64,000 bases of DNA, taken from contig JAGORL010000003.1 in assembly GCA_018062825.1 (NCBI GenBank), forward strand, positions 72,333-136,332, in the 5' to 3' direction. Position numbers and translations under genes: made by a program. Origin of the DNA: Patescibacteria group bacterium. Its GTDB lineage: Bacteria; Patescibacteriota; Patescibacteriia; UBA9934. This document shows positions 20,646-60,590 of the stretch, in pieces; the first letter of the stretch is position 1; each line of letters begins with the position of its first letter. Below the pieces are notes generated by a model, which saw only the letters and a program-made list of their open reading frames with translations, made no database searches and had not been told where the DNA came from.

Positions 20646-21365
20646 GTGAATATGGCACGTGGAGGTATTAAGGACCGCCTGTTTTCAAGTATTCGTGAGA
20701 TTGTTTTTGGTTTGGAGGATAGTTTTGTTTCGACACTTGGTACGGTGAGTGGTGTTGCGGTTGGTAGTGGCAATAAAGAGATCGTGCTATTAGCTGGTTT
20801 TGTGATTGTAGCGGTCGAGGCGCTTTCTATGGCAGCTGGTAGCTATCTTTCCTCCAAAGCAGCAGATGAACTTTATACGGAACGCATGCGGCAGGATGCT
20901 GCTCGCGTTTTAAGTGAGCGAGTTTCTGATAAAGAGTCGCTGAGAGAATTTTTTCACCGTAAGGGATTTTCTGCAGATGAAGTGGCAATTGCGGTGCGGG
21001 CAATTGGACGAGAGCGAAAGTTGTGGCTTGATGAACTGATGCGCGGGGAGTTTAAAATGTCGCCGGCAGCTAGTGGGTCGCCGCTTTTAGCTGGAGTTGT
21101 GATGGGAGTATTTTATTTAGTTGGCGGAGCGCTTGTCCTTGTTCCGTACTTGCTTTTTCCGCTTTCACTCGCACTTCCCATCGCTGTTGTAATGACGTGT
21201 ATTGCACTTTTCATTTTGGGAGCTTGGAAGGCTACGCTTGCGAGTGTTCCGCCTGTGCGAAGTGGGCTTGAGATGATGATGGTTTCACTTGGTGCTGCCC
21301 TTCTTGGCATGGGTATTGGTCAGGTGTTTTCTTTTGTGACAGGAATATCATCCTATGGTCTTTAA
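20646..21365 (+). CDS. VIT1/CCC1-family membrane protein
   Basis: N-terminal GLEDSFVSTLGTVSGVAVG motif and C-terminal TM helices, typical of VIT-family iron/manganese transporters. Confidence 0.6.
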   Translation: MNMARGGIKDRLFSSIREIVFGLEDSFVSTLGTVSGVAVGSGNKEIVLLAGFVIVAVEALSMAAGSYLSSKAADELYTERMRQDAARVLSERVSDKESLREFFHRKGFSADEVAIAVRAIGRERKLWLDELMRGEFKMSPAASGSPLLAGVVMGVFYLVGGALVLVPYLLFPLSLALPIAVVMTCIALFILGAWKATLASVPPVRSGLEMMMVSLGAALLGMGIGQVFSFVTGISSYGL

Positions 21366-22350
21366 GGCGTATACCACCGTGCGAGCACCTGATTTTCCAG
21401 CGGGATTGCGCTGGCTATCTTCTGAGCCGCTTTCACTTACCAAATTACGAGGCAAGCCGGTTTTGATCGATATTTTTACCTATTCGTGCATTAATTGTCG
21501 TCGCACTTTTTCTCATTTGAAGCGCTGGCACGAAACGTATGCGAAATACGGGTTAACAATTATTGGTGTTCATACGCCAGAATTTACTTTTGAAAAAGAT
21601 GAGGTCAAGGTGAAGCAGTCGCTTCGAGAGGCGGGAATTACGTACCCGGTTGTACTTGACCCTGACTATAAGATTTGGCATGCATACGCTAATCGTTATT
21701 GGCCACGAAAGTTTTTGATTGATCGGGAAGGTAAAGTTATTTATGACCATGCAGGGGAGGGGGCATATGCTGAGACAGAGTTTGCTATTCAGAAAGAATT
21801 AAAAGCGATGGGCGTGAAGGATTTGCCAGCGATTGGACCTGATGATTCTATTGGTGGCCGTGTTTGTTACCGTACAACCCCAGAGCTTTATTTAGGGTAC
21901 TTGCGCGGAAGATTGGGGAACGCAGAAGATTTTTACCCAGAAGCGGAAACGGCGTTTACTGATGTGGGGTCTTACGAAGATGATGTTGTGTATCTTCATG
22001 GTCACTTTAATGTACATGGTGAATATTTGGAGCATGCTCGGAAGCTCAGCGCTCCTCATGAATACTTGCGTTTCAAGTACAGTGCTTTTTCCGTGAATGC
22101 AGTTTTTGGTTCAGCGAATAGCGCGACATCTGTTATTGAACTTGAACTTGATGGCAAGCCACTTTCATCTGATTTTGCAGGCGATGATGTTGTTATCACC
22201 AAAGAAGGCAAGGCTGAGCTGTTGGTGCGCGATCACCGTTTGTATTCTCTTGTTCGAGCTGACGTTCATCATCGAGGTGTTTTAACGGTTCGAGTTTTAA
22301 GTGGCAACCTTCAGGCGTATTCACTTACTTTCGGAAGTTGCGAAGAGTAG
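21355..22350 (+). CDS. Thioredoxin-fold (redoxin/DipZ C-terminal-like) protein with an extra C-terminal domain
   Basis: CxxC (SCINC) in a thioredoxin-like context (GKPVLIDIFTYSC..C....L......YAKYGLTIIGVHTPEF). Confidence 0.55.
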   Translation: MVFKAYTTVRAPDFPAGLRWLSSEPLSLTKLRGKPVLIDIFTYSCINCRRTFSHLKRWHETYAKYGLTIIGVHTPEFTFEKDEVKVKQSLREAGITYPVVLDPDYKIWHAYANRYWPRKFLIDREGKVIYDHAGEGAYAETEFAIQKELKAMGVKDLPAIGPDDSIGGRVCYRTTPELYLGYLRGRLGNAEDFYPEAETAFTDVGSYEDDVVYLHGHFNVHGEYLEHARKLSAPHEYLRFKYSAFSVNAVFGSANSATSVIELELDGKPLSSDFAGDDVVITKEGKAELLVRDHRLYSLVRADVHHRGVLTVRVLSGNLQAYSLTFGSCEE

Positions 22351-22375
22351 TCAGGGTTTGTTAAGGTGTTTCCTT

Positions 22376-23503
22376 ATGAAGTCTCCAGGTATCTATTTGG
22401 ATTATGCAGCTGCAACCCCGGTTGATAGACGGGTGTTTGCAGCAATGAAACCTTACTTTTTTGATATTTTTGGCAACCCCTCAAGCGTGCACCGTATTGG
22501 GGTTCTGGCACGTGAGGCAGTGGAGGTGGCTAGAAAGTCGGTAGCTGGGCTTGTTGGTGCTCGAAGTGAGGGTGTTACTTTTACCGCAAGTACAACCGAG
22601 GCGGCGGCAGTTCTTTTTCATTCCATCGCGAAGCAGTTTCCAGGCAAGCGCCACGCGGTAGCGCTTTCGATTGAGCATAAGGCGATTATTGAGAGCCTGC
22701 GGCTAGCGGGTTATGAAGTAACTCTCGTGAAGGTGGATCGATATGGCGTAGCGCGCGCCGAGGACGTGTTGTCGGCGATTCGACCTGATACGGGCATAGT
22801 GAGTGTGCAGCTTGTAAATAACGAAACCGGGGTAGTACAACCTGTTACCGTGATTGGTAAGGCGATTGCGATGTTATCGACCGATAAACCGGTATTTCAT
22901 AGTGATGTTTCGCAAGCGATGGTGACTCAGGTTATTGATCTTTCTGGGATGCACCTTGATGCGGTGACGTTTTCAGCGGCCAAGATGTATGGACCAAAGG
23001 GTGTTGCAGCGCTTGTGGTGAGACACGGTGTGCCGCTAGCACCATTTTTTTCAGGTGGTGGGCAAGAGCGTGGAGTACGAGCCGGTACAGAGAATGTGCC
23101 TGGGATCGTGGGTTTTGGTGAGGCGGCTCGTTTGTGCGTGCTTGAGCGATCCATGCGGGTTAAGCATTTGCTTGCTGCGCGCGAAGTATTTCTTGAGCGG
23201 CTTTCAGGGAGTGGATGTGTTGACTGGGCATCGCAGGCTGAGCGATCCCCGCACATTGCGAGCATTCGGACGCCGAAAGACGCAGAGATGTTGATGGTTC
23301 GTTTGGAGAATGTGGGAGTTTTTGTGTCTGCTGCAAGCGCGTGCACACGTGGCGAGTCAAAATCGCACGTATTGCAGGCTATTGGTATTCCAGATGGTGA
23401 TCTACTTAGAACTATTCGTGTATCCTTTGGGACACCAACGACGCTCTTACAGGCGCGTCGAGCTGGTAAGCTTGTTGCGCAGGCTGCCATTGACCAACTT
23501 TAG
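22376..23503 (+). CDS. Cysteine desulfurase (class V aminotransferase, NifS/IscS-like)
   Basis: Opening YLDYAATTPVD, PLP region (SFSAAKMYGPKG) and catalytic Cys loop (SAASACTRG). Start taken at the ATG at 22376 after the upstream stop. Confidence 0.85.
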   Translation: MKSPGIYLDYAAATPVDRRVFAAMKPYFFDIFGNPSSVHRIGVLAREAVEVARKSVAGLVGARSEGVTFTASTTEAAAVLFHSIAKQFPGKRHAVALSIEHKAIIESLRLAGYEVTLVKVDRYGVARAEDVLSAIRPDTGIVSVQLVNNETGVVQPVTVIGKAIAMLSTDKPVFHSDVSQAMVTQVIDLSGMHLDAVTFSAAKMYGPKGVAALVVRHGVPLAPFFSGGGQERGVRAGTENVPGIVGFGEAARLCVLERSMRVKHLLAAREVFLERLSGSGCVDWASQAERSPHIASIRTPKDAEMLMVRLENVGVFVSAASACTRGESKSHVLQAIGIPDGDLLRTIRVSFGTPTTLLQARRAGKLVAQAAIDQL

Positions 23504-23796: not shown

Positions 23797-24975
23797 ATGG
23801 CACGCCACGTAATCATTGGAGGTGGCATTGCTGGCGTGAGCGCTGCCGAGGAGATTCGTAAGATTGATCCGGCGAGCGATATTACGCTTTTTGAGATTGA
23901 GGAGATCCCATGCTATTCACGGGTGCTTTTGCCGCATTACGTGAAGGGTATTGTGCCGCGAGAGAAGGTTTTTTTACGCGCACCTGATTGGTATGGTCGC
24001 CAAGGTATTGATTGGCGTCACGGTGTGCATGTTGAAGGCGTTGACGTTTCCAATAGCTTTGTCACTACAAGTGAAGGAAGAGAAGAGCCTTTTGATACGC
24101 TTCTTATAACAACTGGAACTGAGGTGACTACGCTTCCTGAGCAACCGCGGGGTGTTTCTTATCTGTCTGAACTCGGAGACGCTGATCATTTACGCGAGCT
24201 TTTAGCTGAGGTTCGCGCAAAGGGCGATGACGCAAGAGGTTTTATTTATGGCGGTGGGTTTATTGCTTTTGAGTATGCGAATATTTTTGCGCATTACAAA
24301 GTTCCATTTGCGATTGCTATGCGTGGATCAGGTTTTTGGTCTAAGGTCTTATCTTCAGCGAGTCAGGCTGTTTTAGCTCAGCACGCACAAGCAAAGGGCG
24401 TTCAGGTTTATTTTAATGAGCCGCAGCCAGAGATTCTTGGAGGCTTAACTCTTGAAGGGGTAAGGCTTTCAGGTGGGGTTTCACAATCAGTAGATATTTT
24501 AGGTATTGGTATTGGTTCTTTACCGCAGCATTCATTAGCAAAAGCTGCGGGACTGGGGGTAGATCGTGGCATTTTGGCGAATGAGTATTTAGAAACATCG
24601 CTTCCTCACGTGTATACTGCCGGAGACGTCTCACAGGCGTTTGATCTCAACGTACGGCGTAACGTGCAGTACGGCAATTGGATGAATGCTCAACGGCAAG
24701 GAATGACCGTTGGTAAAACAATGGCTGGCGAGCGAACGGCGTTCAAGCTTGTGTCCTCGTATGCAACGCAGTTTCTTGGCAAGCACGTTGTATTTATTGG
24801 CGACGTGAGTCGTGAAGCGGCGGATGAGGTTCGTCAGGTGGTTCTTGAGCAAGACGTCGCGCAAGAGATCTTTTTACGAAATGGTATGGTAGTGGGTGCA
24901 TCGCTTATTGGCGATACGTCTCAACGAGCCGCTTTGACCGCAAGTATTGGTCAGCGAGCAGATGATGTTTTATGA
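23797..24975 (+). CDS. FAD-dependent pyridine-nucleotide-disulfide oxidoreductase (ferredoxin/rubredoxin reductase-like)
   Basis: Two Rossmann dinucleotide motifs (VIIGGGIAGVSAA and a second GGGFIAFEYA region), adjacent to the ferredoxin gene. Confidence 0.7.
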   Translation: MARHVIIGGGIAGVSAAEEIRKIDPASDITLFEIEEIPCYSRVLLPHYVKGIVPREKVFLRAPDWYGRQGIDWRHGVHVEGVDVSNSFVTTSEGREEPFDTLLITTGTEVTTLPEQPRGVSYLSELGDADHLRELLAEVRAKGDDARGFIYGGGFIAFEYANIFAHYKVPFAIAMRGSGFWSKVLSSASQAVLAQHAQAKGVQVYFNEPQPEILGGLTLEGVRLSGGVSQSVDILGIGIGSLPQHSLAKAAGLGVDRGILANEYLETSLPHVYTAGDVSQAFDLNVRRNVQYGNWMNAQRQGMTVGKTMAGERTAFKLVSSYATQFLGKHVVFIGDVSREAADEVRQVVLEQDVAQEIFLRNGMVVGASLIGDTSQRAALTASIGQRADDVL

Positions 24976-26048: not shown

Positions 26049-26070
26049 CCACATGGCTAGGATTTTTTGA
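26043..26070. terminator. Bidirectional terminator shared by the convergent PGI/PMI and ribH genes
   Basis: AATCCTAGCCACATGGCTAGGATTTTTT overlaps both stop codons. Confidence 0.65.
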
Positions 26071-26584
26071 TGGCAAGTACGGTCTCAATGGCGCTCATGC
26101 CGGCTTCGTACCCTTTTTTCTGACCGCCGAGCGACCTTACCTCGGCTTGTTCTTTATTTTCTGTGGTCAGTACGCCAAAGACGACGGGAAGGTGGTAGGT
26201 AAGTGAAACGTTCGTGAGGCCATTAGCAACAGCGTCCGCAATATAGTGATCGTGCCGAGTATCGCCTTTTATAATGACGCCAAGACAGATGATGGCATCA
26301 AATTTTCCGGATTGCGCTAGGGCGTCAGCGGCGACAGGGAGCTCAAAAGATCCTGGCACGCGAAGTGTGTGTACGTTTGTAACGCTGGCGTCAGTGAGCG
26401 CTTGCTCGCAGTCTTGTACAAGCGCATCGGTGAGCTCTTGATTGAAGCGTGCGCCGATAATGGCGATGCGAAGTTTTGAGCCGTCGAGCGTTGAAAAGTT
26501 ATTTGATTTCATGTGAGGATTTACGGGATTTTTTAGAGCGGTGATCAGTAGCGTATTTTTCACCCCAAGCATGCATTTGCGCAA
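26057..26584 (-). CDS. ribH: 6,7-dimethyl-8-ribityllumazine synthase
   Basis: Clear RibH sequence (IAIIGARFN, LRVPGSFELP, ICLGVIIKGDTRH). The start is probably the internal Met at 26512. Confidence 0.85.
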   Translation of the reverse strand: MRKCMLGVKNTLLITALKNPVNPHMKSNNFSTLDGSKLRIAIIGARFNQELTDALVQDCEQALTDASVTNVHTLRVPGSFELPVAADALAQSGKFDAIICLGVIIKGDTRHDHYIADAVANGLTNVSLTYHLPVVFGVLTTENKEQAEVRSLGGQKKGYEAGMSAIETVLAIKKS

Positions 26585-26861
26585 TGATCGGTTCCAGATC
26601 TTTGCCCTTTTTTGTGAGCGTATATTCTACGCGCTGGGGGTTGTCTTTGAAGGTTGTCTTGATGACGACGCCCCATTTTTCAAGATCTGATAGGCGCTTG
26701 GAGAGGGTACGGGGGTTTATTCCACCTACAGCATCTTGCAATTGGCAAAAGCGCGCCGTGCCAGTTGTGAGGTGGGCTATTAAGCGCGGTGTCCATTTAT
26801 TGCCAAGAACAAGGGCGCTGATGGCAACGAGTTCTAGGGATGTAGAGGGGTTGTCCGACAT
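26499..26861 (-). CDS. HxlR-family winged-helix transcriptional regulator
   Basis: Pattern LGNKWTPRLIAHLTTGTARFCQLQDAVGGINPRTLSKRLSDLEKWGVV is diagnostic of HxlR. Confidence 0.75.
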   Translation of the reverse strand: MSDNPSTSLELVAISALVLGNKWTPRLIAHLTTGTARFCQLQDAVGGINPRTLSKRLSDLEKWGVVIKTTFKDNPQRVEYTLTKKGKDLEPIIAQMHAWGEKYATDHRSKKSRKSSHEIK

Positions 26862-26971: not shown

Positions 26972-28195
26972 ATGCCTAATCCTTTTGAAAATGCTTTATC
27001 CCAGATTGACCGAGCGGCGGCTGTTGCTCCGGTTTCCGATGAGCTCCTAGCGCGTTTAAGAAAAGCCGAGCGTGAGATCTCTGTTTCCATTCCGGTTGTT
27101 ATGGATTCAGGTAAGGAGCGAGTTTTTGAAGGTTATCGAGTTCAGCACAATAGTTTACGTGGGCCGTACAAGGGGGGTATACGTTTTCATGAAGCGACTG
27201 ATATTGACGAGGTTCGGGCGCTTGCTCTTTGGATGACCATGAAAACGGCGGTTGCGGGAATTGGTATGGGCGGGGGCAAGGGCGGGGTAACGGTGAACCC
27301 AAAGGAATTTTCCGCTTTAGAGATTGAGCGATTAAGTAGGGGATTTGTGCGGGCGTTGTATCGTGATCTTGGTCCGCGGGTTGATGTGCCAGCGCCGGAC
27401 GTGAATACCACGCCGGAGATTATGGCAATCATGGTTGATGAGTATCAAAAATTGACGGGTGATACGACGGGTGCGACGTTTACGGGAAAGCCTCTTACTC
27501 ATGGTGGCTCGCAAGGGCGGGGAGCGGCCACTGGTCAGGGTGGTTTTGCAGTATTTTCTGCACTACGATCTGCTTATGGACTTGGCAATGGCTTGACTGT
27601 CGCGATTCAGGGCATGGGAAACGTGGGTGGTCATGCTGCGCGTATTTTTTCTGCAGCTGGGCATAAGATTGTGACCATGAGTGATTCAAAAGGTGGCGTT
27701 TATAACCCGCAAGGACTTGATGTGGCGGCTGTTGAGGCTTACAAGAAGGAACGCGGATCGCTTGAGGGCTTTAGTGGAGGAGAGGCTATTACAAACGCTG
27801 CTCTTCTTGAGGTAGCGTGTGACGTTCTTATTCCGGCGGCGCTCGAGAATCAGATTACTGCTGATAATGCTGCTAGAATTCAGGCAAAGATGGTGCTTGA
27901 ACTTGCGAATGGTCCAACGACTCCGGAGGCTGACGATATTTTATTTGCGAAGGGCATTGCAGTTGTGCCTGATATTTTGGCAAACGCTGGGGGAGTGGTT
28001 GTTTCTACTTTTGAATGGGAGCAGAATCTTAAGCATGAAGCTTGGAGTGAGGAGGATGTTTTGTTGCGGTTGACAGCGCTTCTTGAAGATTCGTCGCGTG
28101 AGGTCTTGGAGCGTGCTCAGCGTTATGGTACTGATTTGCGTCGTGCGGCATTTTTGCTTGCACTTGAGCGCTTAGAATTAGCACGTACCACGTAG
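26972..28195 (+). CDS. Glu/Leu/Phe/Val-family dehydrogenase (glutamate dehydrogenase-like)
   Basis: Motifs KGGIRFH, active-site lysine region GGGKGG and NAD Rossmann GMGNVGG. Confidence 0.85.
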   Translation: MPNPFENALSQIDRAAAVAPVSDELLARLRKAEREISVSIPVVMDSGKERVFEGYRVQHNSLRGPYKGGIRFHEATDIDEVRALALWMTMKTAVAGIGMGGGKGGVTVNPKEFSALEIERLSRGFVRALYRDLGPRVDVPAPDVNTTPEIMAIMVDEYQKLTGDTTGATFTGKPLTHGGSQGRGAATGQGGFAVFSALRSAYGLGNGLTVAIQGMGNVGGHAARIFSAAGHKIVTMSDSKGGVYNPQGLDVAAVEAYKKERGSLEGFSGGEAITNAALLEVACDVLIPAALENQITADNAARIQAKMVLELANGPTTPEADDILFAKGIAVVPDILANAGGVVVSTFEWEQNLKHEAWSEEDVLLRLTALLEDSSREVLERAQRYGTDLRRAAFLLALERLELARTT

Positions 28196-28196
28196 T

Positions 28197-29723
28197 ATGC
28201 GCATTCCACTTGTTGATCGTTTTCTTGATGGCATCACGATGTATCGTTTGATGCTTTATGGTTTGAGTTTGATTGCGTTTGCGGCGATTGTTTTTGGATT
28301 CTTGGGAGTTTTGTCGTATTCGGGGTTGGCGTTACTTGTGTCGCTTGGTGTTTTGTTTGTGAGCGCGTACGCAAGTAATTTTATTTTGGCGAAGTTGTAC
28401 GGAGTGACTACTAACGCCGAGTCTTCAGCGATCACTGCACTTATCTTGTTCTTCTTGTTCATGCCGGCGACAAGCGCAAAAGAATTTGCTGTGCTTGTGC
28501 TTGCAGCGGTGATCGCCATGGCTTCCAAGTACGTTTTAGCGTATCGCGGCCGTCATTTATTTAATCCAGTTGCCGTGGCGGCGGTTGTATTTGGTTTTAG
28601 CGCGACAAGTGCGGCGATATGGTGGGTAGCAACGCCGACGCTACTTCCTTACACGCTTTTGTTTGGCTTCTTAGTTGTTCGTAAGATTGAGCGATTTGCT
28701 CTTGTTGGTTCGTTTACCGCGCTAGCGCTTATTGGCGTTGGAGTGATGGGTGTTCAGGCGGGCATGACAGCTATGCAGATTGTGCAGTTGGCGTTTGTTT
28801 CGTGGCCAATCATTTTCTTCAGCACAGTCATGCTTACTGAGCCGATTACTACTCCGCCAAGACAAAAGTTGCAGGCAGCCTATGGAGCGATTGTTGGTGT
28901 TATTTTTTCATCACAGCTTCATATCGGGCCATTTTTCGCCACACCTGAACTAGCTCTTATCATTGGAAATATCTTTTCCTATGCGGTTAGCAGTAAGGAG
29001 CGTTTAACGCTTGTCTTTAAGGAGAAGCGTCGTTTAGCAAATGATATTTACGAGTTTGTTTTTACGCCGAATAGAAAGATGGCGTTTAAACCTGGTCAGT
29101 ATGCTGAGTGGACGCTTGCGCACAATCCATCTGACACACGAGGCAATCGACGATATTTTACGATAGCCTCATCGCCAACAGAGCACGAGATGCTTCTTGG
29201 TGTGCGTTTACTTGCAGAGGGTGGCAGTAGCTTTAAAAAGTCACTGTATGAGATGAAAAAAGGCGACACGTTGTATGCCGGTCAATTCGCTGGTGATTTT
29301 ACCCTTCCCGCTGATCCAATAAAGAAGCTTGTTTTTATCGCGGGTGGTATTGGGGTGACGCCGTTTCGTAGCATGCTCGCGTATTTACGTGACACAAAGC
29401 AGAAGCGCGATATTGTCATGCTTTACTCGTGTAAAACTCCGGAAGATGTGGCGTACGAAAAGTTTTTCCGTGATATATCAGAAGTTGTTGGATTGCAGCT
29501 TGTTTGTACCGTGACAGACGCTGGTACTTCGGGAACTTGGACTGGGGAACAGGGAATGATCGACGCGGGATTTGTAAAACGAGCCATTCCTGATTTTACT
29601 GAGCGCCACTTTTTCATTTCTGGTCCACCGATGATGGTTAAGGGCATTGATACTTCACTCAGGGCCATGGGAGTTACTCGAAATAAAATTACAACTGACT
29701 TTTTCCCAGGATTTGGTGGTTAA
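28197..29723 (+). CDS. Fusion protein: polytopic membrane domain (RnfD/NqrB-like?) joined to a ferredoxin-NADP-reductase-type FAD/NAD(P)-binding domain
   Basis: About 260 aa of TM helices (FNPVAVAAVVFGF) followed by an FNR-like module (RRYFTIASSP; GGIGVTPFRSML). Confidence 0.6.
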   Translation: MRIPLVDRFLDGITMYRLMLYGLSLIAFAAIVFGFLGVLSYSGLALLVSLGVLFVSAYASNFILAKLYGVTTNAESSAITALILFFLFMPATSAKEFAVLVLAAVIAMASKYVLAYRGRHLFNPVAVAAVVFGFSATSAAIWWVATPTLLPYTLLFGFLVVRKIERFALVGSFTALALIGVGVMGVQAGMTAMQIVQLAFVSWPIIFFSTVMLTEPITTPPRQKLQAAYGAIVGVIFSSQLHIGPFFATPELALIIGNIFSYAVSSKERLTLVFKEKRRLANDIYEFVFTPNRKMAFKPGQYAEWTLAHNPSDTRGNRRYFTIASSPTEHEMLLGVRLLAEGGSSFKKSLYEMKKGDTLYAGQFAGDFTLPADPIKKLVFIAGGIGVTPFRSMLAYLRDTKQKRDIVMLYSCKTPEDVAYEKFFRDISEVVGLQLVCTVTDAGTSGTWTGEQGMIDAGFVKRAIPDFTERHFFISGPPMMVKGIDTSLRAMGVTRNKITTDFFPGFGG

Positions 29724-30586
29724 GCGGTAAATAATTTAGCAGGGAAATTCGGCGAGCGTACTGCCTCGCCGTTTTCTTTTAGATAACAATAGGAAAATGG
29801 CGCAATGGCGAGTAGCTTTTCCGGGGAGGTGAAGAAAAGGGCTGTGGCTAGTCCGTCTGCGGTCATGGCGTCTTTGGCGATTACCCAGGTAGCGATAATC
29901 GCACTTGGTGAGGCAAGAGTGTGGGGATTGATTGTGTGATTAAAACGATCCCAGGTACGACGATTGCCGGCTGAACCGCAGAGGCTTTGATTTTGAATCG
30001 CCGCCACGCCGATAATCTCCTTAGTGTTGTTTGGATTTTCAAGACCAACAGAAATAGGTTTTTGACCGTGTTGCTTCATGTCGCCGCCGGCATCGACACA
30101 ATATTCATGAATATTAAAGCCTTCGATAATTTCACAGACAAGATCGACAAGGTACCCCTTGCCGGCTGCGCCAATATCTAACATGACCGGTTCATGCACG
30201 GTGAGGATGGGGTTTTTCCACGATAGGACTTCTGACCAGTCTTTTGGTCGACTTAAGACGGCTTTTGGTTTCAAGGAGTAGGTGGCATCGTAACCGGCAT
30301 CGATGAGGGTATTGCCGATTAGTGGTGTGACCGCGCCATTTGTCGCCTCGTAGAGTTTTTTATAAAAGGTGAAGAGTTTGTCCGCATCGCTTGGAAAGGT
30401 GTGTAATCCTTTATTTTGTGCGATGTGACTTACGAGTGAGTCATTGCGAAAGCGAGAGTAGACATGATCAAAATCCGCGATGCGTTCGCGGATTTTGATT
30501 TCGAGTGCGGTACGAATTGTGGTATCGAGCGTGTTTGGTAGATCGATTTCCCAGTGCGTACCAATGGCTTCAAACGACCAGGCCAT
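29720..30586 (-). CDS. apbE: FAD:protein FMN transferase (ApbE family)
   Basis: ApbE-family pattern (DIGAAGKGY, CGSAGN) and ~290 aa length. Confidence 0.7.
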   Translation of the reverse strand: MAWSFEAIGTHWEIDLPNTLDTTIRTALEIKIRERIADFDHVYSRFRNDSLVSHIAQNKGLHTFPSDADKLFTFYKKLYEATNGAVTPLIGNTLIDAGYDATYSLKPKAVLSRPKDWSEVLSWKNPILTVHEPVMLDIGAAGKGYLVDLVCEIIEGFNIHEYCVDAGGDMKQHGQKPISVGLENPNNTKEIIGVAAIQNQSLCGSAGNRRTWDRFNHTINPHTLASPSAIIATWVIAKDAMTADGLATALFFTSPEKLLAIAPFSYCYLKENGEAVRSPNFPAKLFTA

Positions 30587-31068
30587 TAGACTTTGGCCTC
30601 GGTTTTAATCTCGGCAACAGCTTCATTGAAGCCGCTAGGAGTAAGTGATGATCCGGAAACTTTATCAAGCTTTACTTCATCCAAGCTTTTGCCAACAACG
30701 GCGGCACTTAGTCCATTTGAGAACTGTGTCTGCCAGTTTACTGAGGCTGGAAGCGTTGCTTGCACCTCGGCGCTTGCCGCGGTTATGATTCCGTTTTCAA
30801 GGGTGAGCGTGATGCCAACGGTTTCTGGGCCGCCTGGAGAGATGTAGTCGCCAGTAGCTGAATACGTGCCATCTTTGTAAGAGTTGTTGGTAGTGTTTGT
30901 GCCATTTGCGTTTGTATCGGTACCGTTATTTGCAGTTTCTGGGGCAGGAGTTGTTTCGACCGCTGTTTTTTGCGACAGGGCGTAGACGCCGGCGCCGATT
31001 GCTAGTACGACCGCACCAGAGATAACGATTGTAGGAACGCTCACATTCTGCTGCTTTGCATCACTCAT
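30586..31068 (-). CDS. Secreted or membrane-anchored FMN-binding-domain protein, likely flavinylation substrate
   Basis: N-terminal TM/signal, low-complexity linker, C-terminal FMN_bind-like segment with a DKVSGSSLT motif resembling the S/TGAT flavinylation site. Start overlaps the apbE stop. Confidence 0.5.
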   Translation of the reverse strand: MSDAKQQNVSVPTIVISGAVVLAIGAGVYALSQKTAVETTPAPETANNGTDTNANGTNTTNNSYKDGTYSATGDYISPGGPETVGITLTLENGIITAASAEVQATLPASVNWQTQFSNGLSAAVVGKSLDEVKLDKVSGSSLTPSGFNEAVAEIKTEAKV

Positions 31069-31193: not shown

Positions 31194-31625
31194 TTACTTG
31201 TCCTTAGCGTCAGTATTATTGATTACGATGTCGGCGTACGCTAAATCTGCACTGTGAAATGGGCGGTTTGGTCGCTTGATGAAGATCTTTATATCGACAT
31301 CACGAAAAGGAAGGCCCTCATTTTCCACGAAAATAACGGCGCCCTTTTTAGAGCTGTCGTTTAAAAAATAAGGTCGTCTTTCTTCGATGTCTTGAGTTGT
31401 ACTCATTGTGGCTACTTTGAATCCTTTGCTATGCAGTCCTTGGGAGAGATTTTTCAGTAAATGTGTTTTTCCGACGTTGACGCCACTTCCGTAGATTGCA
31501 ATAACAACCTCGTCTTGTTGGGTGAGTGCCTCCTTTATTTTTTCTAAACTTTGTTGCACCCCTCTTTCGAATGACAGCTCAACGTGTTCTTTGCGTAAGT
31601 CTCGTGTGGGTTCTTTTCGTTCCAT
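31194..31625 (-). CDS. Small P-loop NTPase/kinase-like protein
   Basis: Walker A GSGVNVGKTHLL. Start set at the internal Met (31625) because the longer ORF would run into tRNA-Ser. Confidence 0.45.
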   Translation of the reverse strand: MERKEPTRDLRKEHVELSFERGVQQSLEKIKEALTQQDEVVIAIYGSGVNVGKTHLLKNLSQGLHSKGFKVATMSTTQDIEERRPYFLNDSSKKGAVIFVENEGLPFRDVDIKIFIKRPNRPFHSADLAYADIVINNTDAKDK

Positions 31626-31737
31626 AGTGGTTGTAGTGTAACAAAACAACCCCATGAAGGGTTGTTTTTTGTCACATTGGTGCGACGTTGTTGATTCGTC
31701 GTTCGTGACGACGAGGGTACGTTGGTCGCGACCGACG

Positions 31738-31827
<90 letters not shown>

Positions 31828-34501: not shown

Positions 34502-34527
34502 CAAAAAAGCCCTGACGGGCTTTTTTG
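34502..34527 (+). terminator. Intrinsic terminator of the solute-binding-protein gene
   Basis: AAAAAAGCCCTGACGGGCTTTTTTG. Confidence 0.65.
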
Positions 34528-34548
34528 CTTGGTGTATACTTTTTGTAT

Positions 34549-35067
34549 ATGCAGGGTCGACGCGCCTTTTTTTTCATCCCGATTGTTCTTGGCTTGTTCT
34601 TTAGTTTTGTACCGGTGCAAGTTCAAGCGCAGGGTGAGGTTGAATCAGAATTTCAGGATATTTTAAGTCAGGGAATTGTCTTTGCCGGCATCTGTGATAG
34701 CGCCACGGCTCCATGTGCGTGTCGGGATGTTGGCCAGTGTCAGTTGGATGATATTTTGCAGTTATTTGTGAATGTGAGCATTCTGATTCTTGGTATCAGC
34801 GGATCGATCGTGCTTCTCATGTTTGTATGGGGTGGCTTGCAGTGGATTTTATCGCAAGGCAATCCAAGCATGATTGAAAGTGGTAAAAATACCATGATTA
34901 ATGCTGCTATTGGTCTGGCGATTATTTTCGGCTCGTACGCTATGATCAATATTCTTATTTCTGTAGCGACCGGGCAAGGTCCGGCAGCTTCGCCAACGAT
35001 TGAGGGCACTATTGAAGGCGCGGTTCCTGGTAGTAATCCTGGTGCGGTAGTTAATACCGTTGAATAA
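34549..35067 (+). CDS. TrbC/VirB2-like pilin-family protein, paralog 1 of 6
   Basis: Signal peptide, Cys-containing variable region, then conserved TM1-(WGGLQWILSQGNP)-basic loop-TM2, shared with the next five genes. Confidence 0.6.
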   Translation: MQGRRAFFFIPIVLGLFFSFVPVQVQAQGEVESEFQDILSQGIVFAGICDSATAPCACRDVGQCQLDDILQLFVNVSILILGISGSIVLLMFVWGGLQWILSQGNPSMIESGKNTMINAAIGLAIIFGSYAMINILISVATGQGPAASPTIEGTIEGAVPGSNPGAVVNTVE

Positions 35068-35071
35068 ACAT

Positions 35072-35434
35072 ATGATGCTTTTAAAACGTATTTCACAAAT
35101 TGGCGTTTCCATTGGATTGTTTCTGTTCCCATTTTTTGTTCACGCTCAGGCGGTGACACTCATTAACCCACTTGGTGAAGGGAGCAATGATCCACGTTTA
35201 CTTATTGGACGTTTGATTGCGGCGGTTCTTTCGATTGTTGGTTCTTTGGCATTACTTATGTTCCTGTATGGTGGTCTTATTTGGATTACCTCAATGGGTG
35301 AGAGTGATAAGGTTATGAAGGGTAAGAAGATCCTTATTTGGGCTACCCTTGGCCTGGTTATTGTGGCGAGCGCCTACGTAATTGTGAATGCCATTATTCT
35401 TGGTTTGACGACGGGAAATGTAACCACCACTTAG
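35072..35434 (+). CDS. TrbC/VirB2-like pilin-family protein, paralog 2
   Basis: LLMFLYGGLIWITSMGESDKVMKGKKILIWATLGLVIVASAY; same architecture. Confidence 0.6.
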   Translation: MMLLKRISQIGVSIGLFLFPFFVHAQAVTLINPLGEGSNDPRLLIGRLIAAVLSIVGSLALLMFLYGGLIWITSMGESDKVMKGKKILIWATLGLVIVASAYVIVNAIILGLTTGNVTTT

Positions 35435-35505
35435 CAGCAATGAGGAATCATACACACCTACCGTCAGAGTCTAGGAATTCATGTATAATATAAAAAAATT
35501 AACCT

Positions 35506-35928
35506 ATGCCTATGATCAAGTCTTTGGTACGTCTCGGGATGAGTGTTGCGCTCGGTTTGGCACTTGCTCTTCCGTTCCTCCGTTTGGCTCCATCAGCAAT
35601 CTCGGTTGCTCATGCTCAGCCACTTGATTCGGGAGATTTCTTGTCAGATGACTTTTCTGACTCTACGGGCCTTGGTCAGAGTGACTTGCAGACGACAATT
35701 GGTAATTTGATCCGCGTTGCCCTTGGTTTTCTTGGTGTGATCGCGGTATGTATCATCTTGTTCGGTGGTTTTAAGTGGATGGTAGCAGGTGGTAATGATG
35801 AGAAGGTTGCCGAGGCTAAGCGCTTGCTCATTGCTGGCGTTATCGGTCTAGCCATTATTTTGTCCGCTTACGCAATTGCTTCGTTCCTACTCACTTCAAT
35901 CTTGAACGCCTCAACCGATTCGCTCTAG
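35506..35928 (+). CDS. TrbC/VirB2-like pilin-family protein, paralog 3
   Basis: ILFGGFKWMVAGGNDEKVAEAKRLLIAGVIGLAIILSAYAI. A TATAAT box lies upstream, so it may have its own promoter. Confidence 0.6.
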   Translation: MPMIKSLVRLGMSVALGLALALPFLRLAPSAISVAHAQPLDSGDFLSDDFSDSTGLGQSDLQTTIGNLIRVALGFLGVIAVCIILFGGFKWMVAGGNDEKVAEAKRLLIAGVIGLAIILSAYAIASFLLTSILNASTDSL

Positions 35929-35974
35929 GTTTTTTACTAACGGTTCTCCTGAACAAATGTTCAGGGGTTCCGCT

Positions 35975-36388
35975 ATGAAGAAACTCGCTGTTGCAGCACT
36001 ATTTTCGATCGGCTTTTTGCTGCCGGGTATTTCTTTGGCACAGCTTTCTCCAGGTGATAACTATGGTTTGAATGATACGGCGCAGGCCGGATACGGTGAG
36101 GGCGTGACCAGCAATAGCAATATCGGCACTTATCTTGGTACTTATATTATTCAGCCAGTACTTGGTTTGATGGGTATTTTGTTTCTTTTACTGACAGTGT
36201 ATGCGGGATTTTTGTGGATGACAGCCCAAGGTGATGATAGCAAGGTTAAGAAAGCAAAAGATATTTTGGTGGCGGCGGTTATTGGGGCGGTGATCATGGC
36301 TTCAGCTTATGTTCTGACTGCGGCAGTTTTTAACGCCTTGAGCACGGGTAGTATTACAGCTGCGGCAACTACTTCTACCCAAGAATAG
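35975..36388 (+). CDS. TrbC/VirB2-like pilin-family protein, paralog 4
   Basis: LLLTVYAGFLWMTAQGDDSKVKKAKDILVAAVIGAVIMASAYVL. Confidence 0.6.
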   Translation: MKKLAVAALFSIGFLLPGISLAQLSPGDNYGLNDTAQAGYGEGVTSNSNIGTYLGTYIIQPVLGLMGILFLLLTVYAGFLWMTAQGDDSKVKKAKDILVAAVIGAVIMASAYVLTAAVFNALSTGSITAAATTSTQE

Positions 36389-37254: not shown

Positions 37255-37305
37255 GTTTTATAAATAGCGAACGCCCCAGTTCTCCGAAGAGAATGGGGCG
37301 TGAGA

Positions 37306-37911
37306 TCACCGAGTGGGACACCGGCCGAGATTGAACTCGGAGCGGCGGCTCCACAGAGTGCTGTCCTTCATGATGTGGGCGAGGCTGTTGCAGCTCCCGA
37401 CCTTGTTGCCGGCAACCGTGGCGGGGCCAGCAGCGGTAACGGCCATGGAGTTCAGTGCGAACACTGCGATCCCGTTGTATACGCTGATGGTCTTAGAGCT
37501 TTCCGGCACAGCGCCACCGTAGGTGGAACCGGACAGTTGGACGCGCGGCGTGGACAGGATGGTCCAGGCCGAGCGACCGCTCGGAATGCAACTCACGAAT
37601 TCGGTGGGTGACACCCAGAGGCCGATGGCGATCCGGGTTTCGATCCCGCTTTGTTCGGTGAGGGTCATGACGGCGCTCGGATTTCCCGATCCGTCGAGGT
37701 TCGGGCGCAGACACCACTGGGTGGTGTTGCGCACCTCGAGACACAGCGGGTTGCTGTCGCAGCCCGCGGGCGGCGAGAGCACCCACTCGTTCTGGACGGT
37801 GGGGATGAACAACACCTGCGCGTTGTTCGTGCTTCCGGCACCCGCCAGGGCCGCCGTGGGGGCGAAGAAGGCGAGGACGAGGGTGAACAACGCGATGAGG
37901 GTGCGGATCAT
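37306..37911 (-). CDS. Secreted Cys-containing protein A of the GC-rich island
   Basis: Signal peptide MIRTLIALFTLVLAFFAPTAALA, six Cys, GC3-rich codons, and a GGAGG Shine-Dalgarno before the ATG at 37911. The track ORF extends further to 37962. Confidence 0.6.
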   Translation of the reverse strand: MIRTLIALFTLVLAFFAPTAALAGAGSTNNAQVLFIPTVQNEWVLSPPAGCDSNPLCLEVRNTTQWCLRPNLDGSGNPSAVMTLTEQSGIETRIAIGLWVSPTEFVSCIPSGRSAWTILSTPRVQLSGSTYGGAVPESSKTISVYNGIAVFALNSMAVTAAGPATVAGNKVGSCNSLAHIMKDSTLWSRRSEFNLGRCPTR

Positions 37912-38006
37912 GGGAACCTCCGAACTTGAAAGGGCGAGTGAACTCTGAGGCCTCGGCATCATGATTGATGCTGGTGCCAGTGGAGTGCCCTTCTTGCGAA
38001 AGGCGA

Positions 38007-38090
38007 GTTAGCTAGTTGCGAACGTCCAGGCTCCGTAGAGCATGATGGCTGCGATGGCGAAGAAGAAGATTGTGACGATTGACGCGGTCA
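38007..38090 (-). CDS. 27-aa single-TM hydrophobic peptide (MTASIVTIFFFAIAAIMLYGAWTFATS)
   Basis: Hand-found ORF between island genes B and A on the same strand, preceded by an AAGGAA Shine-Dalgarno 5 nt upstream. Below the ORF-track size cutoff. Confidence 0.35.
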
Positions 38091-38193
38091 TGTGGTTCCT
38101 TAGGTGTGTAACCCGCAGACAGCTCATCTTGAGTGATGAACGGTCAGTAGGGTGCCCGTTCGGACTTCTTGGAAGAAGCCGAACGGGACGTAG

Positions 38194-38826
38194 TCACTCT
38201 GCGAGCGCGTCGTTCGCGGCGCGGAGCGAGACCACTTCGCTCTCGAGCTCGCGGACGCGGGCGTCCGTGGCGGAGGAGGTGGTGGTCGACGGCGCGGGCG
38301 AGGCGGGCGGCGGGGTGATCTGGCCCATCGAGGCGGACTGGAACGCGAGCGTTCCCATCTGGCCGAGACCCGGCATGGCCATGCCGGGCATGAACATGCC
38401 GCCGTTGCCAACCGAGATGGCGGCGTACGGGGCGGCCTGGCCGGTGGCGATGAGGTCGCCGTCGGCGTAGGTCGCGACGTTCGCTTCGATGCCCGCGAGG
38501 GAGACGTCACGGCGGGTGCCGGCGTCGACCTGGCGCGTCGCGGCGTCGATGCAGCCGACGCCTTGCCCCATCATCTCGATGGTGTTCTTGGCGCTGACGT
38601 GCTCGGCGTCGATCGTGACACCGCACGCGTTGACCGACACCGTGGGGCGTCCGGTCAGCTGCGTGTTGCTCGTGGCGTCGACTCGGCCGCTGGTCTGCGT
38701 GCGGGGTGCAGCGGGGCTGCGCTCGGCGACCGTTGCGGTCGGGCGGCTGGTCGCGTTCGGGTTGCCACCGGCGAGGGCCGGGGTGGCGAAGGCGACGAGG
38801 GCGGCGAGGGTGATGAAGCGGATCAT
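38194..38826 (-). CDS. Secreted low-complexity protein B of the GC-rich island
   Basis: Signal peptide MIRFITLAALVAFATPALAGG, a Pro/Ala/Thr-rich region, and a C-terminal coiled-coil-like tail. GAGG Shine-Dalgarno before the ATG at 38826. Confidence 0.55.
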   Translation of the reverse strand: MIRFITLAALVAFATPALAGGNPNATSRPTATVAERSPAAPRTQTSGRVDATSNTQLTGRPTVSVNACGVTIDAEHVSAKNTIEMMGQGVGCIDAATRQVDAGTRRDVSLAGIEANVATYADGDLIATGQAAPYAAISVGNGGMFMPGMAMPGLGQMGTLAFQSASMGQITPPPASPAPSTTTSSATDARVRELESEVVSLRAANDALAE

Positions 38827-39203
38827 GGATGACCTCACAGTGGAAGGAGCGGATACTTTACCTGGCAGGTATTAGCCAGTTCAAGTAACACATATTTATA
38901 GCACAAATTTTGGAAAAAGTCAAGGGGGTTAGTGAGATAATTTGGCTAATATTAGAAGAAAATGTGAAATCGGAGATCGGGGATCGGAGATGGATTGAAA
39001 TGCTTTTTTGTGATTGCTACACGGAGATTTCTCAACTCGGCATTCAGACTCGTTCGGGATCGCAAGACGATACATGTAATTGTTTGTTGAGACCTTCCCG
39101 AACGAAAGTTAGGGATCTTGGTTATGTGTTGGCTCTTGGCACGAAGGCTAGACCCCTCACTTGCGTTCGGGGAAGTTTTCAATACTTTTAATAATGGCAT
39201 TTT

Positions 39204-39221
39204 ATAGCTAATATTAGCTAT
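39204..39221. promoter_or_regulatory. 18-bp perfect palindrome ATAGCTAATATTAGCTAT (candidate operator) upstream of the island gene C promoter
   Basis: Perfect dyad. Related sites occur at 14521-14537 (TTGGCTAATATTAGCTA), 38941-38955 (half-site) and 6411-6430, all in divergent promoter regions. Confidence 0.5.
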
Positions 39222-39239
39222 TTTTGTTTACTTATCCCA

Positions 39240-39268
39240 TTGACAAAACGTCGATTTTATGCTACTAT
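39240..39268 (+). promoter_or_regulatory. Sigma70-type promoter TTGACA-17-TACTAT for island gene C
   Basis: Consensus -35 and near-consensus -10 with a 17-nt spacer, ~85 nt upstream of the ATG at 39354. The hexamers match the rRNA promoter at 57222-57250. Confidence 0.6.
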
Positions 39269-39353
39269 ATAGTGTTCGCAAGTGCGGCACATCGCCCATT
39301 TCGCGAAAGCAACTTCACAATCTGCAGTCACAAAGTGACAATCGGAGATCGCC

Positions 39354-41384: not shown

Positions 41385-41388
41385 CAAA

Positions 41389-41419
41389 TACCTCCTTGCC
41401 CACGCGGGGCGAGGAGGTA
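41389..41419 (+). terminator. Terminator-like hairpin after gene C
   Basis: TACCTCCTTGCCCACGCGGGGCGAGGAGGTA, GC-rich with a weak U-tract. Confidence 0.4.
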
Positions 41420-57250: not shown

Positions 57251-57408
57251 TCCGCCGCACTGTTCGTGAACAAAAGTTCACTTCAGAAGAGCTTTTTGGA
57301 CGAAAGTCCAGCGCGCCCTTCTGAACGTTTACAACTAAATATTCTACGAAGAAAAAGCAAACGCACTGATATCATGACCAAAAGGTCATGCGTACTCAGT
57401 GAATGGAG

Positions 57409-60418
<3,010 letters not shown>

Positions 60419-60480
60419 TCCATTCACTGAGTGCGTTAAATCGCACGCGTTTGCTAAACGAATAAAAAAACATTTCATTG

Positions 60481-60590
60481 TCTTGGTGGCATTTCCAGCG
60501 GGGACACACCCGTTCCCTTCCCGAACACGGAAGTTAAGCCCGTTTGGGCCGATGGTAGCCAAGTGTGGCGAGAGTAGGTGGCCGCCAGGA
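60481..60590 (+). rRNA. rrf: 5S ribosomal RNA
   Basis: TCTTGGTGGC..CCGAACACGGAAGTTAAGCCCG..GATGGTAGC..GAGAGTAGGTGGCCGCCAGGA; ends pair. Confidence 0.9.

Follow-up and report, generated by a model that had tools for sequence, protein, structure and literature searches.

A predicted flavin-based transmembrane electron-transfer module of the NQR/RNF-like class in a Patescibacteria genome

We analysed a 64,000-nucleotide stretch (the window) of contig JAGORL010000003.1 from a Patescibacteria group bacterium (assembly GCA_018062825.1) and, within it, a locus of three genes at positions 28,197 to 31,068. Gene A encodes a membrane protein in which an RnfD/NqrB-like domain is joined to an FNR-type oxidoreductase domain, gene B encodes an ApbE-family transferase, which attaches flavin mononucleotide (FMN) taken from flavin adenine dinucleotide (FAD) to proteins, and gene C encodes a membrane-anchored protein with a divergent FMN_bind domain. 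The trio is probably an NQR/RNF-like, flavin-based transmembrane electron-transfer module. As judged from sequence, it adds a typical representative, from a divergent subtype, to a class that has already been described from sequence analysis (PMC8238504, PMC11334425), and is not a new system.

Gene products of the locus

The features of the locus are the following.

28197..29723, + strand: gene A, 508 aa, RnfD/NqrB-like domain of ten transmembrane (TM) helices, then NqrF-like FAD/NAD(P)H (FNR) domain (open reading frame (ORF), Pfam)
28197..29000, + strand: A residues 1-268, RnfD/NqrB-fold membrane domain, N-in/C-in (Foldseek, Lys and Arg counts)
28596..28634, + strand: A residues 134-146, outer loop with W142-W143 (alignment of 319 family members)
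28830..28859, + strand: A residues 212-221, MLTEPITTPP, near-invariant loop on the cytoplasmic face (alignment, topology)
29001..29723, + strand: A residues 269-508, FNR-type domain (profile, Foldseek, invariant motifs)
29151-29171, + strand: FAD motif of A, R319-Y-F-T-I-A-S325, invariant
29340-29366, + strand: NAD(P)H motif of A, A382-GGIGVTPF390, invariant
29720..30586, - strand: gene B, 288 aa, ApbE-family FAD:protein FMN transferase of the type I clade, without signal peptide (Pfam, PDB matches)
29855..29974, - strand: catalytic region of B with S205 (29972-29974), H217 (29936-29938) and D244 (29855-29857), plus T248
30586..31068, - strand: gene C, 160 aa, membrane-anchored, divergent type I FMN_bind domain, NqrC/RnfG-like subunit (profiles, motif)
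30976..31032, - strand: C residues 13-31, N-terminal signal-anchor helix (mean Kyte-Doolittle 2.16 over 19 residues)
30640..30666, - strand: C residues 135-143, DKVSGSSLT, predicted flavinylation motif (aligned to DAVSGATYT of 8p2a)

The stop codon of C and the start codon of B overlap by one nucleotide (TAATG). A and B run towards each other and end in overlapping stop codons, within the palindrome TTAA.

The N-terminal part of A is a membrane domain of the RnfD/NqrB fold. The Pfam family NQR2_RnfD_RnfE (PF03116) is matched by 19 of 23 full-length homologues of A, at best with 5.7e-10, and A itself stays below the gathering cut-off (E 0.0037, 17.1 bits against 27.7). A protein identical to A is named 'oxidoreductase [Patescibacteria group bacterium]' in the database. 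The AlphaFold (AF2) model of whole A has a mean predicted local distance difference test score (pLDDT) of 84.6; a fold search with it returned only FNR-type structures from the PDB, so that the membrane fold needed a separate N-terminal model. When residues 1-269 were modelled (pLDDT 85, predicted TM-score (pTM) 0.85), the top 15 Foldseek matches in the PDB were all RnfD/NqrB chains, with TM-scores of 0.57-0.73. Urea and ammonium transporters, known distant relatives of this fold (PMC12174285), followed below them. The predicted cytoplasmic loops hold 8 Lys and Arg residues and the outer loops none, or 15 and 1 if the helix flanks are counted. Both termini of the domain are thus inside, and the FNR domain is therefore cytoplasmic.

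Two loops of this domain stand out in the alignment of 319 family members. The outer loop at residues 134-146 is probably the counterpart of the flavinylation loop of RnfD/NqrB, a correspondence drawn from position and not from a residue-level alignment. Its tryptophan pair, W142-W143, is invariant, a [ST]G[AS][ST] acceptor occurs in this loop in only 1 of the 319 members, and no Ser or Thr of the loop is conserved; the flavinylation site has been lost from A. The 'GFSATS' stretch in the outer loop of the window protein was considered as a relic acceptor and rejected, as it is not conserved even among close relatives. In the cytoplasmic-face loop at residues 212-221, M212, E215, P216, T218 and P220 are each at least 95% conserved. 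This loop may be where a non-covalent flavin, an ion or the FNR domain makes contact; the LTEP loop with E215 resembles the conserved TDP motif of NqrB/RnfD. The same loop (LTEPxTTPP) was also considered as a cytosolic target of B and discarded, since it bears no resemblance to a flavinylation motif.

The C-terminal domain of A is matched by Pfam NAD_binding_1 (PF00175) at 2.8e-14 (54 bits against a cut-off of 22) and by FAD_binding_6 at E 0.064, the latter family being matched by 12 of the 23 full-length homologues and the NOX-type NAD_binding_6 by 20 of them. Its profile matches the FAD domains of NqrF at about 8e-18, NqrF chains being among its best sequence matches in the PDB. In structure searches, the domain matches NqrF, flavohaemoglobin, cytochrome b5 reductase and the dehydrogenase domain of SpNOX. 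Furthermore, the C-terminal F506-G-G is invariant or conserved and parallels Phe406 of the 408-residue NqrF. No conserved Cys pairs were found in A among the 319 family members; Fe-S clusters are therefore unlikely, and the chain would be flavin-only.

B is an ApbE protein by Pfam (PF02424, 8.3e-40, 137 bits against a cut-off of 25.6) and matches solved ApbE structures with E values down to 6e-12. S205, H217, D244, T248, K143, G144, D169 and R210 are invariant in all 69 cluster-linked homologues. According to a recent review, S241, H257 and D285 of V. cholerae ApbE are the only conserved active-site residues (PMC12052999); S205, H217 and D244 of B are their equivalents, and the Ser-His-Asp triad predicted from the sequence is thus intact. 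We propose that B is a dedicated FMN transferase that would load C. The N-terminus of B, MAWSFEAIGTHW, leads directly into the first conserved strand, and B has neither a hydrophobic N-terminal segment nor a signal. The same holds beyond the window: an N-terminal hydrophobic segment was found in none of the 69 cluster-linked ApbE ORFs (taken at maximal length, many starting right after the stop of C) and in none of 120 independently called relatives of B, all of 286-311 aa. In the 69 ORFs and in nearly all of the 120 relatives, the first conserved ApbE strand lies 4-12 residues from the N-terminus.

C on its own falls below the Pfam FMN_bind (PF04205) cut-off (E 0.08, 14 bits against 22). The family is matched by 21 of 30 cluster-linked homologues of C (best 1.7e-11), and the profile of the 30-homologue alignment matches the solved FMN-binding domain 8p2a at 2.3e-16, with VSGSSLT placed over VSGATYT. 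With a profile of type I proteins only (the subtype of C, defined below), 8p2a is again the top PDB match but is not significant (E = 0.18); aligned by hhalign with the canonical type II profile (DIVSGATxT), the type I profile gives 97% probability and E = 4e-11 over the whole domain. On this profile-profile and mixed-profile evidence, C is homologous to FMN_bind, and its sequence indicates a divergent FMN_bind protein with a Ser acceptor. Close to the C-terminus, the motif D135-K-V-S-G-S-S141 fits the pattern D-x-x-[S/T]-G-[A/S]-[S/T]; all 71 homologues of C have Ser or Thr in the acceptor column, and S141 is the predicted FMN acceptor.

Behind its N-terminal anchor, C has a linker rich in Thr, Asn and Pro (residues 35-63) and a C-terminal domain of ~95 residues. 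The N-termini of its homologues carry either MKK followed by a hydrophobic stretch or lipoboxes; Lys/Arg bias around the TM helix predicts N-in in 31 loci against 14. Lipoprotein signals are present in 6 homologues, including all five actinobacterial ones, and in Peribacteria too, and a few homologues have Tat-like RR signals. The anchor of C and the lipoprotein signals of the actinobacterial and Peribacteria homologues suggest that the FMN_bind domain lies outside the cell membrane.

An earlier note, based on the bare sequence of this DNA, had read A as an RnfD/NqrB-like domain joined to an FNR module, B as an ApbE and C as an FMN_bind-like protein with DKVSGSSLT. All three identities are borne out, by Pfam, homologues and the top fold matches for A, by the invariant catalytic residues for B and by the alignment with the 8p2a motif for C. 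Neither of the two observations that the note had named as refuting its reading, an FMN_bind motif missing from the alignment or an ApbE-like gene without conserved catalytic residues, was made. The profile searches that it had suggested gave a divided result, with PF02424 and NAD_binding_1 above their cut-offs, PF04205 and PF03116 below theirs and FAD_binding_6 at 0.064.

Conservation, subtypes and genomic surroundings

One genome per species was scanned, giving 80 loci with A homologues. The synteny in relatives that the earlier note had proposed to look for is there: in 67 of the 80 loci, C, B and A lie within 3 kb of each other, so that their adjacency is not due to chance. Usually, the trio forms an operon in the order C-B-A, its genes all in one direction and joined by stop and start codons that overlap. 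Most of the loci belong to Patescibacteria, and others are found in Ktedonobacteria and other Chloroflexota, in Mesorhizobium and Kaistia (Hyphomicrobiales), in Microbacteriaceae and Cellulomonas (Actinomycetota) and in Spirochaetota. The convergent layout of the window is unusual and is common to its closest relatives, which are 56-58% identical. Loci L025, L026, L030, L032, L034, L035, L054, L059, L065 and L078 have an A-type gene without ApbE, or without both ApbE and FMN_bind, within 6 kb; among these, L032 is a complete Daviesbacteria chromosome and L026 carries a tandem pair of FMN_bind genes and lacks ApbE within that distance.

The C family comprises two subtypes, and C of the window belongs to type I, with the motif x-x-V-[S/A/G]-G-S-S-L-T-P..GFN. 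ApbE likewise falls into a type I clade (about 290 aa, starting FEAIGTHW) and a type II clade (about 247 aa, starting MKQTRILMGMPITVE), and the two proteins change together:

ApbE type I, 17 classified loci: Ser acceptor in 17 (G[SA]S-L motif), Thr acceptor in 0
ApbE type II, 43 classified loci: Ser acceptor in 4 (SGAS/TGAS), Thr acceptor in 39 (SGAT/TGAT)

That the ApbE clade and the acceptor motif of C vary together gives good reason to think that B acts on C. When the ApbE proteins are placed in a neighbour-joining tree, the actinobacterial type I proteins (Microbacteriaceae, Cellulomonas; L072, L076, L077, L079, L080) group with those of Saccharimonadales (L058, L070), inside an otherwise Candidate Phyla Radiation (CPR) clade. 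This single distance tree, which carries no support values, hints at transfer between Saccharibacteria and their actinobacterial hosts. The A family is large, with >5000 clusters at 90% identity, mostly from Patescibacteria, when full-length A is the query (some of them possibly FNR-only matches), and 391 clusters at 50% identity with E <= 1e-30 when the N-terminal domain alone is used.

Several genes recur beside the trio elsewhere and are absent from the window, namely, OmpR/histidine-kinase pairs in 14-19 loci (L041-L052, L056, L063, L073) and MacB-type ABC proteins with HlyD-like partners in 10 CPR loci (including L002, L016, L020, L023, L036 and L074). Both sets may be lineage-specific regulators or partners. 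A VIT1 iron transporter is linked to the module in 4 loci (L046, L050, L052, L057), and Meheust et al. describe six VIT1-linked clusters (PMC8238504). In the window, the following features surround the trio or lie within it.

20646-21365: VIT1 iron transporter, 7 kb upstream of the module
21355-22350: fusion of AhpC/TSA and thioredoxin-like domains
22301-23503: class V aminotransferase, cysteine-desulfurase type
23797-24975: Pyr_redox_2 protein with a Rubredoxin_C domain, matching soluble rubredoxin-reductase-type domains
26057-26861, - strand: lumazine synthase gene (ribH) and HxlR-type regulator gene, overlapping, directly upstream of the glutamate dehydrogenase gene (gdh) and A
26972..28195, + strand: gdh (Pfam ELFV_dehydrog 1e-70)
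29750..29781, + strand: terminator-like GC-rich hairpin with T-run, 27 nt past the stop of A, within the 3' end of the coding sequence of B on the opposite strand (consensus scan)

The upstream genes share a redox or iron theme, which is circumstantial, and a riboflavin-synthesis gene (ribH) adjoins a flavin-dependent module. The ATG of A sits one nucleotide past the stop of gdh (TAGtATG), the two genes are probably co-transcribed, and glutamate dehydrogenase is a possible local source of NAD(P)H for the module. A conserved coupling of gdh with A was rejected, as the adjacency is missing in the closest relatives (L081 and L082); gdh is context that lies outside the conserved module. The hairpin is a possible terminator embedded in the opposite gene B; the consensus scan returned 13 terminator-like sites against 7.7 expected and is thus weak evidence for it.

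Further downstream, the longest ORF at 31194-31784 (- strand) overruns a tRNA-Ser gene (31738-31827, - strand), and its true start therefore lies further in; its product has a P-loop-like GSGVNVGKT motif and only weak Pfam matches. Four tandem small membrane proteins are encoded at 34525-36388, and the two that were scanned match Pfam T4SS_pilin (1.5e-09 and 1.8e-10), arrays of such pilins being typical of CPR. Beside them, positions 37300-41400 have a GC content of 0.59-0.61 against about 0.47 elsewhere and encode a pair of proteins that carry signal peptides (37306-37962 and 38194-38838, both - strand), together with a polytopic membrane protein of 676 aa (39354-41384, + strand). None of these three proteins has a Pfam match, and a long antisense ORF spans the region, which may be a horizontally acquired island. 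Finally, 57404-60590 carries a 5S rRNA gene and a 23S rRNA gene of 3021 nt, for which the model has 2925 positions. The rest of the 64-kb window has no 16S rRNA gene; perhaps the rRNA operon is unlinked, and the 23S rRNA gene may have a small insertion.

Relation to known systems and the predicted electron path

The NQR/RNF-like system of Meheust et al. (2021, eLife, PMC8238504) was defined by an NqrB/RnfD-like domain fused to PF00175 and encoded near ApbE and FMN_bind genes. The architecture of the window trio is identical, namely, an NqrB/RnfD-like and NqrF-like PF00175 fusion with FMN_bind and ApbE, and B and C are the next two genes after A, within the five-gene limit of that definition. 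The taxa match as well (CPR, Actinobacteria, Ktedonobacteria), and the TM domain likewise lacks the Thr site; the TM subunit of NQR/RNF-like systems is described as having lost the flavinylated Thr of NqrB/RnfD (PMC11334425). The window differs in being of the Ser-acceptor subtype (GSSLTP motif) with an ApbE of the roughly 290-aa clade, and in its convergent genes, which do not form a single C-B-A operon. The family also looks far larger than the 127 genomes given in the original description. To be counted in the published screens, a cluster had to include a signal peptide and reach the Pfam thresholds, and CPR were 'strikingly underrepresented' in them (PMC8238504), possibly because of these very requirements. 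Such screens may miss the window subtype, in which both FMN_bind and PF03116 fall below the Pfam cut-offs.

With Na+-NQR (NqrB, NqrC, NqrF) and RNF (RnfD, RnfG), the module shares the membrane fold, an N-terminally anchored FMN_bind subunit, maturation by ApbE and an NqrF-type FAD/NADH domain including the terminal Phe-x-x. By contrast, it lacks the NqrA/D/E or RnfA/B/C/E subunits, Fe-S clusters, a 2Fe-2S ferredoxin domain and the covalent FMN on the B/D-type subunit, and its path is predicted to be one-way and not semicircular, with no evidence of ion pumping. No other Nqr or Rnf subunit was found among 20 neighbouring ORFs scanned with Pfam (18.4-25, 26-28, 31-35.4 and 37-44 kb), and none recurs in the 80 loci.

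The earlier note had also suggested that the trio could be of the type of flavin-based extracellular electron transfer (EET); the module is probably not of the Listeria type but of a separate class built on the NqrB/RnfD fold. Like the Listeria system (Ndh2, EetA/EetB, PplA, FmnB, FmnA/RibU), it would pass electrons from cytosolic NADH to an ApbE-flavinylated, surface-anchored FMN_bind protein. However, Listeria uses a type II NADH dehydrogenase, quinone and EetA/B, whereas the module has an RnfD-fold flavoprotein; and Listeria FmnB is a secreted lipoprotein fed by a FAD exporter, whereas the ApbE of the module has no export signal and no linked exporter. A membrane-anchored Ndh2 was not found in the 20 Pfam-scanned ORFs; EetA/EetB and PplA were not specifically searched for. 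NOX and ferric reductases, such as Streptococcus pneumoniae NOX (PDB 8qt6), are similar in overall plan, with a polytopic membrane domain, a C-terminal cytosolic FNR-type domain and outward transfer of NAD(P)H electrons; the SpNOX dehydrogenase domain is a structural match of A, and the NAD_binding_6 matches of its homologues point the same way. Their membrane domain is nevertheless unrelated, having six helices and two haems, whereas A has the RnfD/NqrB fold with predicted flavins.

In RnfD/NqrB, the riboflavin sits on the cytoplasmic side and the covalent FMN, about 8 A away, on the periplasmic side (PMC12174285), and a likely path for the module can therefore be drawn. NAD(P)H would reduce FAD in the cytoplasmic NqrF-like domain of A. 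The electron would then cross the membrane through the RnfD/NqrB-fold domain by way of a non-covalent flavin in its cytoplasmic half, assumed by analogy with NqrB/RnfD, and reach the FMN covalently bound to Ser141 of C. C would dock on the outer face of A and replace the covalent FMN that NqrB and RnfD carry themselves. From there, the electron would pass to an extracytosolic acceptor encoded outside the module. Donor, direction and acceptor are thus predictions of the scheme. For the Ktedonobacter complex, Huang et al. (2024, mSystems, PMC11334425) give an AlphaFold-multimer model, which places the flavinylation site of FMN_bind beside an apparent non-covalent flavin site of the TM subunit. 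The minimal NAD(P)H-driven transmembrane chain that the earlier note had suggested is thus a model already published (PMC8238504, PMC11334425), in which the function is likewise predicted.

Several points weigh against this reading. The membrane domain of A and the FMN_bind domain of C stay below the Pfam cut-offs; the intramembrane flavin is an assumption; all-against-all clustering of neighbours over the 80 loci yielded no universal fourth gene that could be the terminal acceptor; B has no export signal though its presumed substrate domain is outside; and in the searchable literature we found no experiment on any family member and, on the family or on ApbE in Patescibacteria, nothing beyond PMC8238504 and PMC11334425.

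The chain might instead face the cytoplasm, with C oriented N-out/C-in, its FMN_bind domain flavinylated and working in the cytoplasm between the FNR and membrane domains, and the membrane domain of A reducing a membrane-soluble or outer acceptor. This would suit the cluster ApbE, signal-less in every case examined, and the known signal-less ApbEs, which act on cytosolic substrates (PMC12052999); the charge bias of the window C is itself ambiguous, with one Lys/Arg on each side of the TM helix. We nonetheless regard it as unlikely, given the N-in bias of the homologues (31 loci against 14), the many N-termini with MKK and a hydrophobic stretch, the six lipoprotein signals and the linkers rich in Thr, Asn, Pro and Ser, which are typical of extracytoplasmic stalks. 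Moreover, NqrC and RnfG are periplasmic (PMC12174285), and the published multimer docks C on the outer face (PMC11334425).

A second alternative, that the membrane domain of A is mainly an ion or solute path and that the flavin chain gates or drives cations, as in a minimal redox-driven pump or redox-regulated channel, draws on the urea and ammonium transporters found below RnfD/NqrB among the fold matches, on the invariant acidic E215 in the LTEP loop and on the Na+ path proposed for NqrB (PMC12174285). It appears quite unlikely, however, as the module has neither the D/E (A/E) subunits nor their 2Fe-2S cluster that drive conformational switching in NQR/RNF, and one-way outward electron flow alone builds no useful gradient. 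Still slightly less probable is an inward or reversible module, in which an extracellular or host-derived reductant would supply electrons through the FMN of C to make NAD(P)H in a cell without a respiratory chain. FNR-type modules are reversible, RNF is bidirectional (PMC12174285) and no dedicated acceptor gene is conserved; but with most of the plausible donors the reaction would be energetically unfavourable if no ion gradient were coupled to it, the module has no switch subunits of the RnfA/E type, by which RNF is linked to the gradient, and the adjacent gdh would supply, not consume, NAD(P)H. Finally, a chance adjacency of the three genes, or a B that serves a target elsewhere in the genome, is most improbable: although A lies on the strand opposite to B and C, so that the trio is not one operon here, and about 10 of 78 A homologues stand without a neighbouring B or C, the trio recurs within 3 kb in 67 of 80 loci, where stop codons often overlap the start codons of the next gene, the closest relatives keep the convergent layout and the ApbE subtype co-varies with the acceptor motif of C.

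Site of flavinylation and significance of the class

In the outward electron-transfer module that we favour, the compartment in which B would act has to be reconciled with its sequence. The earlier note had labelled the module as one of extracytosolic flavinylation, a label that finds no support for the enzyme, as B, the 68 other cluster-linked ApbEs and the 120 further relatives have no N-terminal signal. Most characterised ApbEs are secreted lipoproteins, an N-terminal signal being typical but not universal. Three options present themselves: cytoplasmic flavinylation of C ahead of its export, release of B from the cell along a route that has escaped recognition, or an inward-facing C. The first can tentatively be extended to the whole class, although the odds are against it: a signal-less ApbE would use cytosolic FAD and modify the Ser/Thr motif of C in the cytoplasm before or during export, which in most lineages would proceed through Sec. 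ApbE can act on short peptide tags, and bulky adducts on side chains are tolerated by SecYEG; cytoplasmic flavinylation before export is therefore physically plausible. Signal-less ApbEs are known to serve cytosolic substrates (PMC12052999). The cytosolic ApbE of Klebsiella pneumoniae resembles B in having no signal peptide and a gene beside that of its substrate; however, its substrate is a soluble cytoplasmic fumarate reductase, whereas that of the module carries a signal anchor or lipoprotein signal. We found no discussion of a signal-less ApbE with an exported substrate in the accessible portions of PMC8238504, PMC11334425 and the ApbE review (PMC12052999).

That a signal-less ApbE is paired with an exported substrate matters for the question of where, and by what means, extracytosolic flavoproteins acquire the cofactor derived from FAD. 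If flavinylation does take place in the cytoplasm, the maturation of such proteins would need neither a secreted ApbE nor a FAD exporter, which would suit genome-reduced CPR, and screens that demand a signal peptide on ApbE would undercount flavinylation in CPR. The interest thus lies more in the class, as a large family and for the question of where its ApbE acts, than in this particular locus. To our knowledge, Patescibacteria have no respiratory chains; if the predicted electron path is correct, releasing electrons from NAD(P)H to the outside could be one of the chief means by which these bacteria keep their redox balance, reduce iron or carry on exchange with a host.

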